Part shown: positions 8,190 through 28,710 of the stretch, in pieces
Layout: each line of letters starts with the position of its first letter
How positions within the stretch are numbered: position 1 is the stretch's first letter
NCBI RefSeq assembly: GCF_024298765.1
Contig: NZ_CP101210.1
Source: Escherichia coli
Lineage (GTDB): Bacteria; Pseudomonadota; Gammaproteobacteria; Enterobacterales; Enterobacteriaceae
Reading direction: 5' to 3' (one strand)
DNA length: 64,000 bases
The notes under the pieces: model-generated
Seen by the model: the letters and a program-made list of their open reading frames with translations, nothing else
What the model was told of the DNA's origin: nothing
Databases searched by the model: none
Position numbers and translations under genes: made by a program

Positions 8190-8216
8190 ATGCACTGGAT
8201 AAGGATTATCCAATTC

Positions 8217-8255
8217 TAAAAAAAAGCCCGGACGACTGTTCGGGCTTGTCTTTTT
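8217..8255. terminator. Bidirectional intrinsic terminator shared by convergent ydbK (+) and micC (-)
   Basis: GC-rich hairpin (aagcccg ... cgggctt) flanked by an A run on one side and a T run on the other. Confidence 0.75.
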
Positions 8256-8327
8256 ATATGTTGGAAAATCAGTAGCAATGCAATGGCCCAACAGAAAATA
8301 AAATCTGTGACAATAAAGGCATATAAC
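8218..8327 (-). ncRNA. micC: MicC sRNA (Hfq-dependent repressor of ompC/ompD)
   Basis: Reverse complement reads GTTATATGCCTTTATTGTCACAGATTTTATTTTCTGTTGGGCCATTGCATTGCTACTGATTTTCCAACATATAAAAAGACAAGCCCGAACAGTCGTCCGGGCTTTTTTT, matching remembered MicC with about one mismatch; located between ydbK and ompN. Confidence 0.9.
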
Positions 8328-8554
8328 CCGCGCAGAATAACGTATAGCAAATTAAAAGTATAATTTTTATTTTGTATGTATTATCTTCAATACATTCACC
8401 AGACTTATTATCATTTCCGTAGAATTATTTGATTAAGGTTTTACTTAAGGCGTAACAAATGATATTTATCGGCTAACTGAACTTCTCCTTTAGGATGTTT
8501 TCACTCCCCGAAATGGGGATAAAAGGCAAATAAAATAACTAAAGGATTTATTCA

Positions 8555-13136: not shown

Positions 13137-13258
13137 AAAAAAAAGCCGACTCATCAAAGTCGGCGTCGTACGAATCAATTGTGCTATGCAGTAATTCAAA
13201 AAAGGAAGTAAGACAATATGGAGCGCAACGCCCATCGCTTGACGTTGCATTCACCTGC
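13137..13258 (-). ncRNA. fnrS: FnrS sRNA (FNR-activated, anaerobic)
   Basis: Reverse complement reads GCAGGTGAATGCAACGTCAAGCGATGGGCGTTGCGCTCCATATTGTCTTACTTCC...GACTTTGATGAGTCGGCTTTTTTTT with terminal hairpin and U tail; located between zntB and dbpA. Confidence 0.9.
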
Positions 13259-16602: not shown

Positions 16603-18117
16603 TCAGGATGATTTATTCATAGCAGGAACCAACAAAAATGCGATAAATAACAGACCACTGATTAGCAGAAAGGTATCCGAAAATGCCATAGTTTGCGCCT
16701 CCCTCAGCATCAACTGACTCAATAATTTGGTTGAAGCCAGTATTTCCGATGTCTGGTCACTTCCACTGCGATTAAAAAACAAAGCACTTCTGGAAATGAA
16801 GTCATTCACCGTATGGGGAACAGAAACCATTTTTTCACCCATTCTCGAAAAATGAAAATTAGTTCGATTATTGAGAATAGAGCCACACAGGGCAATACCA
16901 ATCGCGCCCCCAAGATTACGTGTTAAATTAAATACACCAGAGGCTAACTTCAGCCGTTCCTTTGGAATTCCCCCCAGCGTTAATGTTACGATGGGGGCCA
17001 TCGCAAACTGCTGCGAAATCCCTCTAATTGCCTGTGGAAACAGTAACTCCTGCCATCCCCATTCGTGGGTTATAGGGGTAAAAAGATACATTGAAAACAC
17101 AAATCCACCCAGCCCCGCCATCAACAGCCATCGCAGATTTATTTTTTTACTTAACCAGAAGTAAAAGGGAACAGAAAATAACTGGAAAATACCTGTTGTG
17201 CAAACGGCAAAACCTATCTCTTCGGCATTTAATCCGCGAACCTGCCCCAAAAACACAGGTATTAAATATACAGTAGAGAATATCCCAACCCCTCCAGAAA
17301 AAGAAAAAAAACATCCCAGCGTGAAATTTTTATCCTTAAAAGCATGAAGATCCATTATCGGATTGGATATTGTAAGTGTACGCGCAGCAAATAAAATAAA
17401 ACTCACCAATGCCAGAACTGATGTCAGCAAAATAGTATTATCATCCAGCCATCCCCAGCGCGCTCCTTCTTCAAGGGTATATTCCAGACATCCCAGTGTC
17501 ATGGCCAACAGGATAATACTCGGATAATCAGCAACTTTCAGTAAAGAGAGATCAGGTTTATCAAAATTAACCAGAAAAGGAATACTCAAAACTAAATATA
17601 TGCCAGGTAATATATTGATATAAAATAGCCATCGCCAGTCGAGGTTATCAGTGATCCAGCCCCCCAGAGTTGGCCCTAGCGTCGGTGACAGTGAGGCCAG
17701 CGCACTGACTACCGCAGCAGCCAACCCCAACTCTTTACCCTGGTAATAAATAAACGCCGTCGTGAAAACTAAAGGGATCATGGATGCGCCAGCCGCTCCC
17801 TGTAAAGCACGAAACAAAATCATGATCTGAATATTCCATGCAAGTCCACACGCGATACTCATTAAAGTAAATATTCCCGCGGATAGAGTAAAAAGCCAAC
17901 GAGTGGAAAATACCCGTGACAGCCACCCAGAGAGCGGAATAACAATAATCTCAGCAATTAAATAGCTGGTCTGAAGCCAGGCCATTTCGTCTTTACCTGC
18001 GGACAGACCACCACCTATTTCATTTAGGGATGACGATACAATTTGAATATCAAGCTGAGCAATAAATAATCCCATACACATACTGGCGAAAGCAATATGT
18101 TTACGCATAGACATCAT
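16603..18117 (-). CDS. MFS drug efflux transporter, EmrB/QacA (DHA2, 14-TMS) type; not a K-12 gene at this position
   Basis: 504-aa hydrophobic ORF with MFS architecture; start overlaps the stop of the upstream HlyD-family gene by 4 nt (operon). Confidence 0.8.
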   Translation of the reverse strand: MMSMRKHIAFASMCMGLFIAQLDIQIVSSSLNEIGGGLSAGKDEMAWLQTSYLIAEIIVIPLSGWLSRVFSTRWLFTLSAGIFTLMSIACGLAWNIQIMILFRALQGAAGASMIPLVFTTAFIYYQGKELGLAAAVVSALASLSPTLGPTLGGWITDNLDWRWLFYINILPGIYLVLSIPFLVNFDKPDLSLLKVADYPSIILLAMTLGCLEYTLEEGARWGWLDDNTILLTSVLALVSFILFAARTLTISNPIMDLHAFKDKNFTLGCFFSFSGGVGIFSTVYLIPVFLGQVRGLNAEEIGFAVCTTGIFQLFSVPFYFWLSKKINLRWLLMAGLGGFVFSMYLFTPITHEWGWQELLFPQAIRGISQQFAMAPIVTLTLGGIPKERLKLASGVFNLTRNLGGAIGIALCGSILNNRTNFHFSRMGEKMVSVPHTVNDFISRSALFFNRSGSDQTSEILASTKLLSQLMLREAQTMAFSDTFLLISGLLFIAFLLVPAMNKSS

Positions 18118-19145
18118 CTCTCATCGACACTGACGGTGACGGACAGTCCCGGGCGAAGAAGTTGCTTTAATTCCTTTGCGTCGTCAAATGCAATCCGTAC
18201 CGGGACACGCTGAACAATTTTGGTGAAATTGCCAGTGGCATTTTCTATCGGAATCAAGCTGAAACTGGCTCCTGTCGCTGGGGAAAGGCTTTCAATGTGA
18301 CCGTGAAACACTTCCCCTTTGAGAATATCAGCACGGATCTCAGCCTTCATTCCTGGCTTCATTCCCGCTATTTGGTTTTCTTTATAATTTGCATCAACCC
18401 ACAACTCACTGACTGGTACAAGTGAAACTAACGATGTGCCGCCTTCCACCCAACTGCCTGTATGGGCGCTGCGGTTTGCGACAATGCCATCAATCGGCGC
18501 ACGAACAAGGGTATATTCCAGATCCAGTAGTGCCTGAGTCAAAGCGGCCTGAACTTCTTCGATACTCGCACGTACGTTTTCTTCCTGAGCAGATAAAACT
18601 GCCAGCCGTTGCTTCTCCACCAGGAAATCGTTCGCGGCTTTGCGCTCCTTTGCTGCGACCTGCTGGTAGTCAAACCTGGCGTTATCAATAATTTGCTGCG
18701 ATATTGCCGCTGATTGTACGAGTTTTTCATAACGTTCAGTATCTCGCAGGCGCTTTTGCTCCTCATGTTTTACTGCCTGCCATGTTTCACTGGCACTTTG
18801 AATTATCGACTGCTGCATCGTAATAGTGGCTTGAATGCTTTCGAGATTGGCTTTTCTACTTTTTATTTTTGCCTCAAGCCTGGCGACATTTGCACGATAA
18901 TCCCGATCATCGAGACGCAGGATAATATCGCCTTTTTTTACGCTCTGATTATCACGCACCTCTATAGCAGAAATATAACCAGAAACTTTACTTGCCACCG
19001 TGGTAATATTACCACCAATGTAAGCATCATCCGTCGTCTGTATAAATCTTCCTTTGCTTACCCACCAGATAAAAAAGACAACGCCAGCCAAAATAATACC
19101 GATCGCTACTACCCCAATAAGCTGTTTTTTAGAAATTATCATCAC
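18114..19145 (-). CDS. HlyD-family membrane fusion protein (EmrA-like periplasmic adaptor)
   Basis: 343-aa ORF: N-terminal TM anchor (VVAIGIILAGVVFFIWW), long coiled-coil region, C-terminal beta-barrel-like domain; translationally coupled to the MFS gene. Confidence 0.8.
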   Translation of the reverse strand: MMIISKKQLIGVVAIGIILAGVVFFIWWVSKGRFIQTTDDAYIGGNITTVASKVSGYISAIEVRDNQSVKKGDIILRLDDRDYRANVARLEAKIKSRKANLESIQATITMQQSIIQSASETWQAVKHEEQKRLRDTERYEKLVQSAAISQQIIDNARFDYQQVAAKERKAANDFLVEKQRLAVLSAQEENVRASIEEVQAALTQALLDLEYTLVRAPIDGIVANRSAHTGSWVEGGTSLVSLVPVSELWVDANYKENQIAGMKPGMKAEIRADILKGEVFHGHIESLSPATGASFSLIPIENATGNFTKIVQRVPVRIAFDDAKELKQLLRPGLSVTVSVDER

Positions 19146-19500
19146 TCTTTACACCGTATATATCCGGAAACTTGCATTCGCCATATTTAAAATTTAACAT
19201 GGCTTATTTGATGATTTCTGACAAAATACCTACTGTAAATGACAATCACACTGCAACCCAAAGCATCACCAGGGCATCACATTATCGGACTGGATTCGGA
19301 ACATCTGAATGGAGGCACAGTTCCCTGGCATAAACATCTCTATGCCCAGTTGCTTTACCCGGCTGAAGGAGTCGTTCGTGTATGGGCTGGAGAAAGCGTC
19401 TGGCTAGTGCATGCCAGCAGCGCGCTTTGGCTGCCCCCACAAATGCCGCATAAGTTTGTTGCGACAGGCAACGTACTTTTAAAAACCGTACTGGTTTCAG

Positions 19501-19509
19501 AAGCGGAAA
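19501..19509. repeat. Left copy of the 9-bp target site duplication (AAGCGGAAA)
   Basis: Identical 9-mer directly abuts both ends of the IS (19501..19509 and 20567..20575). Confidence 0.9.
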
Positions 19510-20566
19510 GGCTTTGTTGAATAAATCAAATTTCGGGTAAGTCTCCCCCGTAGCGGGTTGTGTTTTCAGGCAATACGCACGCTTTCAGGTATACCTGCTT
19601 TCGTCATTTTGTTCAGCGCTCGTACCAGGGCCATAGCCTCCGCAACCTGACCATCGTAGTCACGCAGCGTCAGTGCCCCCCCGAACAGCTGTTTTACCCG
19701 GTACATCGCCGTTTCCGCTATCGAGCGACGGTTGTAATCTGTTGTCCATTTCCACCGCGCATTACTCCCGGTCATTCGCTGATTAGCCACTGCACGGTTA
19801 CGGTCTGCATATTCACCGGGCCAGTAACCCGCACCTTTTCGGGGAGGGATAAGCGCGCTGATTTTCTTACGCCGCAGTTCATCGTGACATAGCCGGGTAT
19901 CGTAAGCGCCATCGGCGGCGGCTGACCTGATTTTCCGGTGGGTTTGCCGGATTAACCCGGGGAAGGCCTCTGAGTCCGTAACGTTGTTCAGCGACAGGTC
20001 TGCACAGATGATTTCATGTGTTTTACTGTCAACGGCGAGATGCAGCTTACGCCAGATACGGCGGCGTTCCTGGCCATGCTTTTTGACTTTCCACTCGCCT
20101 TCACCGAAGACCTTCAGCCCGGTGGAATCAATCACCAGATGTGCGATTTCACCCCGGGTGGGCGTTTTGAAACTGACATTAACCGACTTTGCCCGCCTGC
20201 TGACACAGCTGTAATCCGGGCAGCGTAGCGGAACGTTCATCAGAGAAAAAATGGAATCAATAAAGCCCTGCGCAGCGCGCAGGGTCAGCCTGAATACGCG
20301 TTTAATGACCAGCACAGTCGTGATGGCAAGGTCAGAATAGCGCTGAGGTCTGCCTCGTGAAGAAGGTGTTGCTGACTCATACCAGGCCTGAATAGCTTCA
20401 TCATCCAGCCAGAAAGTTATGGAGCCACGGTTGATGAGGGCTTTATTGTAGGTGGGCCAGTTGGTGATTTTGAACTTTTGCTTTGCCACGGAACGGTCTG
20501 CGTTGTCGGGAAGATACGTGATCTGATCCTTCAACTCAGCAAAAGTTCGATTTATTCAACAAAGCC
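19510..20566 (-). mobile_element. IS903-like insertion sequence (IS5 family, IS903 group), 1057 bp
   Basis: Terminal 18-bp inverted repeats GGCTTTGTTGAATAAATC at 19510..19527 and, inverted, at 20549..20566; right end matches the remembered IS903 end GGCTTTGTTGAATAAATCGAACTTTTGCTGAGTTGAAGGATCAGATC; single transposase ORF; flanked by 9-bp direct repeats. Confidence 0.92.
19566..20534 (-). CDS. IS903-family DDE transposase
   Basis: 322-aa ORF (true start may be internal) resembling the remembered IS903 transposase (e.g. GRPQRYSDLAI..., WRKLHLAVD...THEIICADLSLNNVTD...); transcribed toward the HlyD/MFS genes. Confidence 0.9.
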   Translation of the reverse strand: MKDQITYLPDNADRSVAKQKFKITNWPTYNKALINRGSITFWLDDEAIQAWYESATPSSRGRPQRYSDLAITTVLVIKRVFRLTLRAAQGFIDSIFSLMNVPLRCPDYSCVSRRAKSVNVSFKTPTRGEIAHLVIDSTGLKVFGEGEWKVKKHGQERRRIWRKLHLAVDSKTHEIICADLSLNNVTDSEAFPGLIRQTHRKIRSAAADGAYDTRLCHDELRRKKISALIPPRKGAGYWPGEYADRNRAVANQRMTGSNARWKWTTDYNRRSIAETAMYRVKQLFGGALTLRDYDGQVAEAMALVRALNKMTKAGIPESVRIA

Positions 20567-20575
20567 AAGCGGAAA
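20567..20575. repeat. Right copy of the 9-bp target site duplication (AAGCGGAAA)
   Basis: See left copy. Confidence 0.9.
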
Positions 20576-21190
20576 GTGAAACGCTGGGAAAAGTTTGCTT
20601 CATGACGGGTATTTCACCCCTGTTAAGAGAATTACTAATTGCAATTAACCAACTTCCACCGTCGCAAAGTACCACAGATAAACAACAGTTACGTTTTTCA
20701 GCCCTCGAGACACTGATACTTCAGGAAATAAAAATGGGGGTGAAAATGTCACTTGAACTCCCTTGGCCAAATGATGAGCGGCTACAGCAGCTTTGTGAGA
20801 ATTTGCTAAACAACCAAGGGTATCTGCCAACACTGGATAATCTAGCGGATAAAATTAACGTCAGTAGCCGTACACTCATGCGCTTATTTGTTAAAGAGAC
20901 GGGATTAACATTTCGCCACTGGGTTCAGCAAATGCACGTTATTTCTGCAGTGACGCTTCTTGATGATGGATATTCGTTGACCAAAATTGCCCATCGTCTG
21001 GGCTATGCCTCAGCTGAATCGTTCGGCAATATGTTTAAGCGTCGAACGGGCTACTCGCCCGGTAAATTTACTCGTCGATTAACGATGCATGATTATGCAA
21101 TCACAAGGCAAATGATTTAACTTATATTTTCGTGAAATCTGTCACTGAAGAAAATTGGCAACGGATGGGTAAAACCGTTATAACACTGTC

Positions 21191-21285
21191 ACCGGTCACC
21201 AGGACCCCAGGCCGGATTTAAGACGAGGATGCACTGCTGTGTGTACTGTAGAGTCTGGCGGATGTCGACAGGCTCTATTTTTTTA
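21191..21285 (+). ncRNA. mcaS: McaS (IsrA) sRNA, CsrA-binding regulator of motility and biofilm
   Basis: ACCGGTCACCAGGACCCCAGGCCGGATTTAAGACGAGGATGCACTGCTGTGTGTACTGTAGAGTCTGGCGGATGTCGACAGGCTCTATTTTTTT matches remembered McaS core with GGA motifs and intrinsic terminator; from memory, so the 5' boundary is approximate. Confidence 0.65.
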
Positions 21286-21663
21286 TTCATTTTTTAGCTC
21301 TGTAAATAACCACATTCTCGCCGGGATTGGGGAATGAGTGACGAGATCAGTGGTGTCTGGCGGCTATCACGCCACAGAATCAAATAACAGATAGCCTACG
21401 GTAAAATTTCGCTGACTGGAATTATCCCACCCTCGATCCATGTGATGGCTTGCCCTCATTTCTTCAGGCAGAAAAATCAAAAAATCGCTTTATGCTATCA
21501 GACTGCGACAAACCAGACGCGAAACTGGGTACTTACTATTCGTTAGTCTTGCCCTATCCGCTTATCTTTTTGGTGGTATGGCTGCTGATGTTGCTGGCGT
21601 GGTATCTTGTTGGTCTGCCGATAGGTCCGGGGATTTACCCACGTTTGTCTTAAGAGAGAACGG

Positions 21664-27810: not shown

Positions 27811-28710
27811 CTAAACAGCACCTTTATACTTCAGCCTATCTATAAATAATGAGAATGCCGAGCCAGCATGTCGACGGTGTGGATAGTACAGGTGATAACC
27901 GGGTAAATCTGGTGTGAATTTATCCAAAACACGTATCAGTTTTTTTTCTTTAATAGCCCGCTCAACCTGATCATAAGGTAGATACGCCAATCCATGCCCA
28001 TCAATTGCAGCATCAATGATCAGGTCTATCGTATTCAGTAAAAGCTGACCTTCCATGCGAACACGAACTTCACGTCCACCGCGTATTAATCTCCAGCGAT
28101 TTGCTGTACCCGATGTGGGAAGATACAAATTAATTGCCTGATGATCTATTAATTGTGACACTGAGGTTGGAGCACTTCGACGAGAAAAATAATCCGGTGA
28201 GCCAACAATAGCCATTGGTATATCTGGCCCGATTCGAATGGCGATCATATCTTTATCCATCTCCCCACCCAGACGGACGCCTGCATCAAAACGTTCAGAA
28301 ACGACATCGGTCAAACCATAATCAATGGTAAGCTGGATATCAATTTCAGGATGCGATTTCAGGAATGTGCGCATAGCTGGTAACAATATCGTTTTTGCTG
28401 CATGTTCTACAGTAGTAATACGTATTGTCCCGGATGGGCGGTTCTGCAGATCGCTCAGGGATGTCAGGGCAGAATCTATGTCATGCAACATAGGGCCAAG
28501 AACAGACAAAAGATGCTCGCCCGCTTCAGTGGGTACAACGCTGCGCGTGGTTCGTGTCAGAAGCCGCAATCCCAATCGTTCTTCTATACGGCGCACTATC
28601 TGGCTTAAAGCTGACTGCGCCATGCTCAGGCGGGCTGCTGCGCGAGTGAAGCTACGCTCCTCTGCAACGACGACAAACGCCATCAGATCAGCGATTTCTT
28701 CACGCTTCAT
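27811..28710 (-). CDS. pgrR: LysR-family regulator PgrR (YcjZ)
   Basis: 299-aa ORF; N-terminal LysR HTH (FTRAAARLSMAQSALSQ); divergent from ycjY. Confidence 0.92.
   Translation of the reverse strand: MKREEIADLMAFVVVAEERSFTRAAARLSMAQSALSQIVRRIEERLGLRLLTRTTRSVVPTEAGEHLLSVLGPMLHDIDSALTSLSDLQNRPSGTIRITTVEHAAKTILLPAMRTFLKSHPEIDIQLTIDYGLTDVVSERFDAGVRLGGEMDKDMIAIRIGPDIPMAIVGSPDYFSRRSAPTSVSQLIDHQAINLYLPTSGTANRWRLIRGGREVRVRMEGQLLLNTIDLIIDAAIDGHGLAYLPYDQVERAIKEKKLIRVLDKFTPDLPGYHLYYPHRRHAGSAFSLFIDRLKYKGAV

Follow-up and report, generated by a model that had tools for sequence, protein, structure and literature searches.

An IS903B insertion splits an AraC-family regulator gene beside a predicted efflux operon in Escherichia coli

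How does an efflux pump fare when an insertion sequence (IS) breaks the regulator gene that lies divergently beside it, with the transposase gene of the newcomer pointing toward the pump? Such an arrangement is found on an Escherichia coli chromosome, within a window (the whole stretch of DNA analysed here) of 64,000 nucleotides. An earlier note on the same stretch had given two alternative answers: transcripts that read through from the IS, or start at an outward promoter in it, could drive the pump constitutively, or else the insertion could silence the pump, if the regulator is an activator. In our explanation, which as a whole is very probably right, an IS903B element has knocked out the regulator, and the pump would have lost its effector-responsive control. 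To see why, it is necessary to go through the element, the gene it entered, the pump genes that it left alone, and the possible routes by which an IS could act on them.

Anatomy and identity of the element

The element, an insertion sequence of IS903B type (IS5 family, IS903 group), occupies positions 19510..20566 (1,057 bp), and its transposase is encoded on the minus strand. The terminal inverted repeat at the transposase-distal end (19510..19527) is GGCTTTGTTGAATAAATC, all 18 bases of which are complementary to 20549-20566; the repeat at the transposase-proximal end (20549..20566) is its exact reverse complement, and a script-based comparison of the two ends showed that their similarity collapses past position 18. 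Outside the element lie two copies of the 9-mer AAGCGGAAA, the left one at 19501..19509 and the right one at 20567..20575. They agree at nine of nine positions, and the same 9-mer is present in a single copy at the empty site of a close relative, strain 104, which will be described below. As the chance of a 9/9 direct repeat at fixed positions is only about 4e-6, this flanking repeat is not fortuitous but a target-site duplication. When the 64-kb window was scanned for the 18-mer of the inverted repeat, it was found once per orientation, which indicates a single element with no composite structure; a composite transposon was ruled out, there being no second IS copy or inverted repeat within the window. 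Thus, the earlier note was right, on direct reading as well as by script, to describe a 1057-bp element with 18-bp terminal inverted repeats and a perfect 9-bp flanking direct repeat, and also to attribute them to a single transposition of IS903 type, for the element is an IS903B isoform with one pair of inverted repeats and its precise removal mends the interrupted frame.

Which member of the IS903 group is it? A length of about 1,057 bp, perfect 18-bp inverted repeats, a 9-bp target-site duplication and a single 307-aa DDE transposase characterize the group, and the element shares all of them with IS903B, IS903 and IS102. Among the full-length matches, which count in the thousands on plasmids and chromosomes, the best plasmid copies are 99.4% identical to the element and the best E. 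coli chromosomal copies 99.8%, and these best copies are all annotated as 'IS5-like element IS903B family transposase'. The alignment with IS102 of pSC101 runs from position 1 to 1057 without a gap, the 18-bp ends being identical and the overall identity 92.6%. Because the identity is 99.4-99.8% to the copies labelled IS903B versus 92.6% to IS102, the element is to be assigned to IS903B, the near-identity being with copies that owe their name to RefSeq/PGAP. Duplications of 9 bp also flank two other IS903B copies that were inspected. What distinguishes the copy here from those of IS903B, IS903 and IS102 is its new insertion site and two private substitutions, which are seen against the closest database copies at IS position 20 (19529) and position 1007 (20516). 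The former is located two bases inside the boundary of the transposase-distal inverted repeat, and the latter in the untranslated stretch between the transposase-proximal inverted repeat and the GTG start, where it adjoins two GATC sites. Neither of them touches the 307-aa reading frame.

The transposase gene (19566..20489, minus strand) encodes 307 aa from a GTG codon; RefSeq has it start further upstream, at a TTG at 20534, which gives 322 aa. It is the sole long open reading frame (ORF) in the element and has no internal stops. Its product scores 357 bits against NCBIfam NF033579 (IS5-family transposase; cut-off 140), is identical across 307 residues to the copies filed as WP_153443559.1, and has D121, D193 and E259, which we take to be the catalytic triad positions of IS903. 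This IS903B copy is intact and probably active.

Does the insertion point itself look like one that an IS903 element would choose? With its surroundings it reads TTTCA-g[AAGCGGAAA]g-TGAAA, and the inverted pentamers TTTCA and TGAAA that flank the target are located at window positions 19495-19500 and 20576-20581. As printed in Table 1 of one paper (PMC2577343), the target motif of IS903 is WTTYA-N9-TRAAW. Both arms of that motif are perfect at the present insertion, spaced by 11 nt versus the 9 nt of the printed table, and two other IS903B sites inspected against the motif in this printed form are without it. The pentamer flanks suggest, short of proof, the ordinary target preference of IS903.

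The empty site and the broken regulator

The DNA on both sides of the element is E. coli chromosome, in which an accessory module, consisting of the AraC-type gene (araC hereafter) and the divergent hlyD-MFS pair, lies between smrA and mcaS/ogt. In E. coli strain 104 the gene order is smrA, a DHA2 MFS permease, an HlyD-family protein, a divergent AraC-family regulator, remnants of abgR and abgT, ogt, and fnr, and the empty site reads ...GGTTTCAGAAGCGGAAAGTGAAACG..., in which the 9-mer occurs once. If the IS and one copy of the repeat are removed from the window, the resulting sequence aligns with strain 104 over 13,935 bp with two mismatches and free of gaps. A script that joined 19239-19509 to 20576-21120 gave an open frame of 271 codons without a stop, and this rejoined gene of 816 nt is nucleotide-identical to the araC-family gene of strain 104 (WP_000156573.1). 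It had been claimed that taking out the element with one repeat copy would restore a continuous AraC-family frame, and it does so, yielding a protein of 271 aa identical to WP_000156573.1; a strain with the uninterrupted regulator, with which the earlier note had proposed a comparison, is thus at hand in strain 104, where the empty site has a single 9-mer and the gene is identical.

Over the whole window, six substitutions, one 1-bp indel and two IS events separate the two genomes, and both flanks are colinear over 64 kb. One of the IS events is IS903B here, and the other is ISVsa5 (IS10-like) in strain 104, at a point corresponding to window positions ~27960-27970. There, ISVsa5 truncates a LysR-family gene (window ORF 27811-28710, minus strand) in its 3' part; the gene in the window is intact. 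Two IS differences versus six SNPs in ~63 kb, relative to strain 104, mean that IS movement outpaces point mutation in this lineage.

Could the element nevertheless be an artefact of assembly, or a piece of a larger rearrangement or composite transposon? IS copies often cause misassembly. However, a perfect 9-bp duplication of what is a single copy in the empty site is a footprint of transposition that an assembler would not make, the flanks remain colinear with strain 104 throughout 64 kb, and the pair of inverted repeats is present just once in the window. An artefactual origin is therefore extremely improbable. Very probably, an intact, transposition-competent IS903B entered, by one cut-and-paste or replicative hop, an E. 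coli chromosome very close to that of strain 104, and by landing after codon 90 of a 271-codon AraC-family gene it generated its usual 9-bp target duplication.

Then, what is left of the regulator? The 5' fragment of the gene (19239..19509, plus strand) consists of codons 1-90 and the first base of codon 91 and covers the cupin/AraC_binding domain (residues 25-88). Its reading frame is closed by a stop at 19518-19520, after three further codons (R-L-C) that belong to the IS. The 3' fragment (20567..21120, plus strand) keeps the linker and HTH_18 (180-258 in the numbering of the intact protein), and contains a free-standing ORF of 172 aa from an ATG at 20602 to 21120. In Pfam searches with the rejoined protein, HTH_18 was detected at 180-258 (E=1.4e-21), and in the N-terminal region AraC_binding at 27-88 (E=5e-8) and Cupin_2 at 25-83 (E=1e-6); NCBIfam AraC-family models match as well. 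A C-terminal double HTH and an N-terminal cupin/AraC_binding sensor are together those of an AraC/XylS-type regulator. The IS enters after codon 90 of 271, past the cupin sensor and ahead of the HTH domain, and leaves the DNA-binding half of the gene without a promoter and start of its own. Since the effector-binding cupin domain is thus separated from the DNA-binding domain, the allele is, as judged from its sequence, a null allele, from which a functional regulator cannot be made. That the regulator is inactivated had been said before; the entry after codon 90, the stop at 19518-19520 and the split of the two domains bear it out.

The pump and its probable regulation

Next to the broken gene, the two pump genes and the divergent promoter region between them and the regulator are untouched by the IS. 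The gene for the HlyD-family membrane-fusion protein, a periplasmic adaptor, is located at 18114..19142 on the minus strand and encodes 342 aa (WP_000587186.1 in strain 104). The protein scores above the cut-off of TIGR01730 (RND_mfp) and below those of TIGR00998 for EmrA/EmrK (266.7; cut-off 390.8) and NF011715 for EmrA (205; cut-off 563). As the generic TIGR01730 alone is passed, the adaptor is filed here as an HlyD-family protein and not as a member of EmrA/EmrK. The permease gene (16603..18117, minus strand), an open frame of 504 aa, belongs to the DHA2 family of MFS efflux permeases, since its product scores 404.8 against TIGR00711 (cut-off 230.2), from position 3 to 480 of the 485 of the model. 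Against NF000391 (EmrB), it scores 219 with a cut-off of 925. A DHA2 permease of the 14-TMS type with an HlyD-family adaptor encoded just upstream is what this pump shares with EmrAB-TolC and EmrKY of E. coli. In contrast to these systems, its components are neither EmrA nor EmrB, and its regulator is of AraC type while that of EmrAB is of MarR type (EmrR).

Is the pump alive at all? The MFS gene carries the RefSeq/PGAP label 'frameshifted' in each of the seven E. coli records that were inspected, and from this one might think of a pseudogene and a pump that was already dead before the IS came. We rejected this reading for the window: the 504-aa ORF is colinear from end to end with orthologues of 505 aa from Citrobacter, Kluyvera, Pluralibacter and Hafnia at 82-83% identity, with no shifted segment, and the frame is open also in the divergent alleles of ST131 and O84:H7. 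The flag is probably a systematic artefact of annotation. The protein cluster that contains the E. coli MFS protein has 6,355 members, which come from non-NCBI sources only.

Between araC and hlyD, a divergent promoter/operator region of 96 bp (19143..19238) is intact and free of the IS, with putative minus-strand promoters at 19239..19211 and 19224..19196. An alignment of orthologous loci revealed conserved blocks within this intergenic region. Moreover, the three genes, an AraC-type regulator divergent from HlyD and MFS, are found as a unit in other Enterobacteriaceae, namely in genomes of the Citrobacter/Kluyvera type, in at least two different neighbourhoods. Synteny that is kept across neighbourhoods, together with the conserved intergenic blocks, supports the idea that araC and hlyD-MFS would be a dedicated unit of a regulator and its pump.

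In which direction would such a regulator act? Searches by protein accession or by locus neighbours found no paper on the regulator or the pump, and neither a close solved structure nor a characterised close homologue of the regulator was found. Full-length regulators of the AraC/XylS family are mostly activators. Given these habits of the family, the insertion has more likely cost the pump its activation or induction. An instructive example is FuaR of Stenotrophomonas maltophilia, an AraC-type protein of 264 aa whose gene is separated by 70 bp from fuaABC, an efflux operon transcribed in the opposite direction; without fusaric acid FuaR is a repressor of the operon, and with fusaric acid an activator (PMC3517613). 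The two regulators are alike in size (~264-271 aa), in domain layout (HTH at ~180-255) and in gene arrangement, that is, divergence from an efflux operon across a gap of 70-96 bp. However, the likeness stops there, since the pumps differ, fuaABC being of the fusaric-acid-resistance type and the present one a DHA2 MFS permease with an HlyD-family adaptor, and the dual action as repressor and activator belongs to FuaR only. If the regulator here acts like FuaR, its loss would cause slight de-repression at the basal level along with lost induction, so that both alternatives of the earlier note would be partly true.

By losing the regulator, the pump would come to be without effector-responsive control. 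What is expected is a pump that is no longer inducible and is expressed at its basal level or perhaps, through de-repression, slightly above it, with weak read-through from the transposase gene added at most. Taken by itself, this loss of inducible control, which is deduced from the broken gene and its relatives, has a somewhat better than even chance of being true. As for the other possible consequences, activation by read-through from the IS is unlikely and an active C-terminal fragment very unlikely, and the rest of the probability falls to the case that the insertion has no measurable effect.

Could the insertion turn the pump on?

The geometry invites this question. It had been noted earlier that the transposase is transcribed toward hlyD-MFS, and indeed the transposase gene, hlyD (18114-19142) and the MFS gene (16603-18117) are all on the minus strand. 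The stop codon of the transposase gene (19566-19568) is 56 bp from the end of the IS and ~420 bp from the start of hlyD, and ~370 bp lie between the end of the IS and the ATG of hlyD (19142). Transcripts from the transposase promoter, or from a hybrid promoter formed at the junction, might leave the IS at its transposase-distal end, cross the 271 nt of the araC 5' fragment and the intergenic region, run into hlyD-MFS and make the pump constitutive and independent of the regulator, and the insertion might have been selected for the efflux in the environment of the host. Promoters were searched with a consensus tool and with a relaxed scan (at least 8 of 12 matches, spacers of 16-19), which weak promoters may escape. 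Neither scan revealed a sigma-70-like promoter, whether within an end of the IS or formed across its junction, that reads outward on either side. An outward or hybrid promoter, for which both scans were empty at the IS ends, was rejected as unsupported; the minus-strand candidates of the relaxed scan, at 19309..19281, 19239..19211 and 19224..19196, are only in native DNA.

Read-through from the transposase gene is then the only conceivable route from the IS to the pump, and a weak one at most. As a scan of the minus strand found no terminator-like site from the transposase stop to hlyD, some IS-driven transcription of the pump would be possible. The transposase promoter of IS903 is weak, which speaks against a pump that is driven strongly in this way, and so does the absence of any recurrent or convergent insertion at the locus among 1,457 carrier genomes. 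What is known of related elements goes both ways. In a review (PMC9208149), IS5-family elements, among them IS903-group elements of Paracoccus, are cited as having promoter activity that drives neighbouring genes; these are different elements from the one here. On the other hand, the published cases of IS903B that were found are those of lost function, such as the insertion that knocks out ompK36 in Klebsiella pneumoniae (PMC8612250), and other published copies of IS903B are passive neighbours of blaCTX-M-14. The knock-outs of mgrB and ompK36 in K. pneumoniae share with the present case the same element and a simple chromosomal insertion. They differ in that the selected phenotype is known there, namely resistance to colistin or carbapenems, whereas the insertion here has hit an uncharacterised regulator and is without evident phenotype or selection. 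On balance, it is improbable that the IS turns the pump on.

Another way to a constitutive pump would be through the remains of the regulator itself. The ATG-initiated ORF of 172 aa (20602-21120), in which the linker and the whole DNA-binding domain survive intact, might produce a truncated activator that needs no effector, and the isolated C-terminal DNA-binding domains of some AraC/XylS proteins are active. But nothing like a plus-strand promoter leads out of the IS into this ORF, the sole match (20602..20632) lying inside the ORF, and the Shine-Dalgarno-like sequence before the ATG at 20602 is weak. There is accordingly very little probability in an effector-independent fragment that drives the pump. 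When the 172-aa fragment was looked up, the matches were all to metagenome or long-read contigs full of errors, which had frameshifts and not IS insertions.

Put together, the two routes would amount to an adaptive rewiring, in which the sensor is lost, the transposase gene stands in line with the operon, and the pump becomes constitutive either by read-through or by the 172-aa fragment. We regard this as quite unlikely; if it were true, it would mean an efflux phenotype for a poultry-associated lineage of E. coli. Coming back to the knock-out of the regulator with loss of inducible control, one may ask how widespread and how old the event is. With a query spanning the left junction, thousands of records matched in either the flank or the IS, and not one of the 5,426 complete E. 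coli genomes had the two joined; a large assembly collection contained no match to the exact truncated product of 93 aa. Because the junction is in 0/5,426 genomes and the 93-aa product is unrecorded, the insertion is, as far as these data go, recent and private to this genome. The word 'recent' of the earlier note is well chosen also in view of the perfect inverted repeats and target-site duplication, the intact transposase, and a sister genome at a divergence of ~1e-4 that is without the insertion. Nothing indicates that the insertion event was selected.

The module itself is much more common than its insertion. The 3-kb left flank with the module is present in 1,457 of the 5,426 complete E. 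coli genomes (~27%), including ST131, Nissle 1917 and E2348/69. Of the 1,457 carriers, 1,452 have an intact araC, and in 1,454 its identity is 99% or more; this may reflect purifying selection on the regulator, the loss of which would then perhaps not be neutral. The regulator may also have a role beyond the pump. In 1,315 of 1,454 carriers, 80% or more of the MFS gene is kept, so that, with araC intact in 1,452/1,457, a broken regulator beside an intact pump is the rarer pattern. The pump genes are lost in various manners: strain FY10 has an ISKpn26 insertion within the MFS gene, and Nissle 1917 and MS8324 have two different deletions that fuse the MFS and HlyD genes. This is an uncharacterised accessory module, which is decaying in different ways in different lineages.

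Some neighbours of the module deserve mention. The small RNA McaS (21191-21286, plus strand) is encoded 71 bp past the end of araC, and MicC (8210-8330) and FnrS (13141-13258) are on the minus strand; all three score above the Rfam gathering threshold. Of abgR and abgT, only remnants are seen between McaS and ogt, at window ~21294-21653 by coordinates transferred from strain 104, from which it follows that the abg operon has been deleted in this lineage. Some metagenome contigs have the araC-hlyD-MFS island along with intact abgR-abgA, which shows that the island and abg can coexist.

What, then, does the insertion mean? The event is a textbook knock-out by a well-known IS, and as such it is ordinary biology, of slight significance beyond annotation, where the split AraC gene should be entered as a pseudogene interrupted by IS903B. 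If the pump has a drug or toxin as its substrate, however, this natural knock-out of the regulator would make the strain a handy one for tests of how the pump is regulated.
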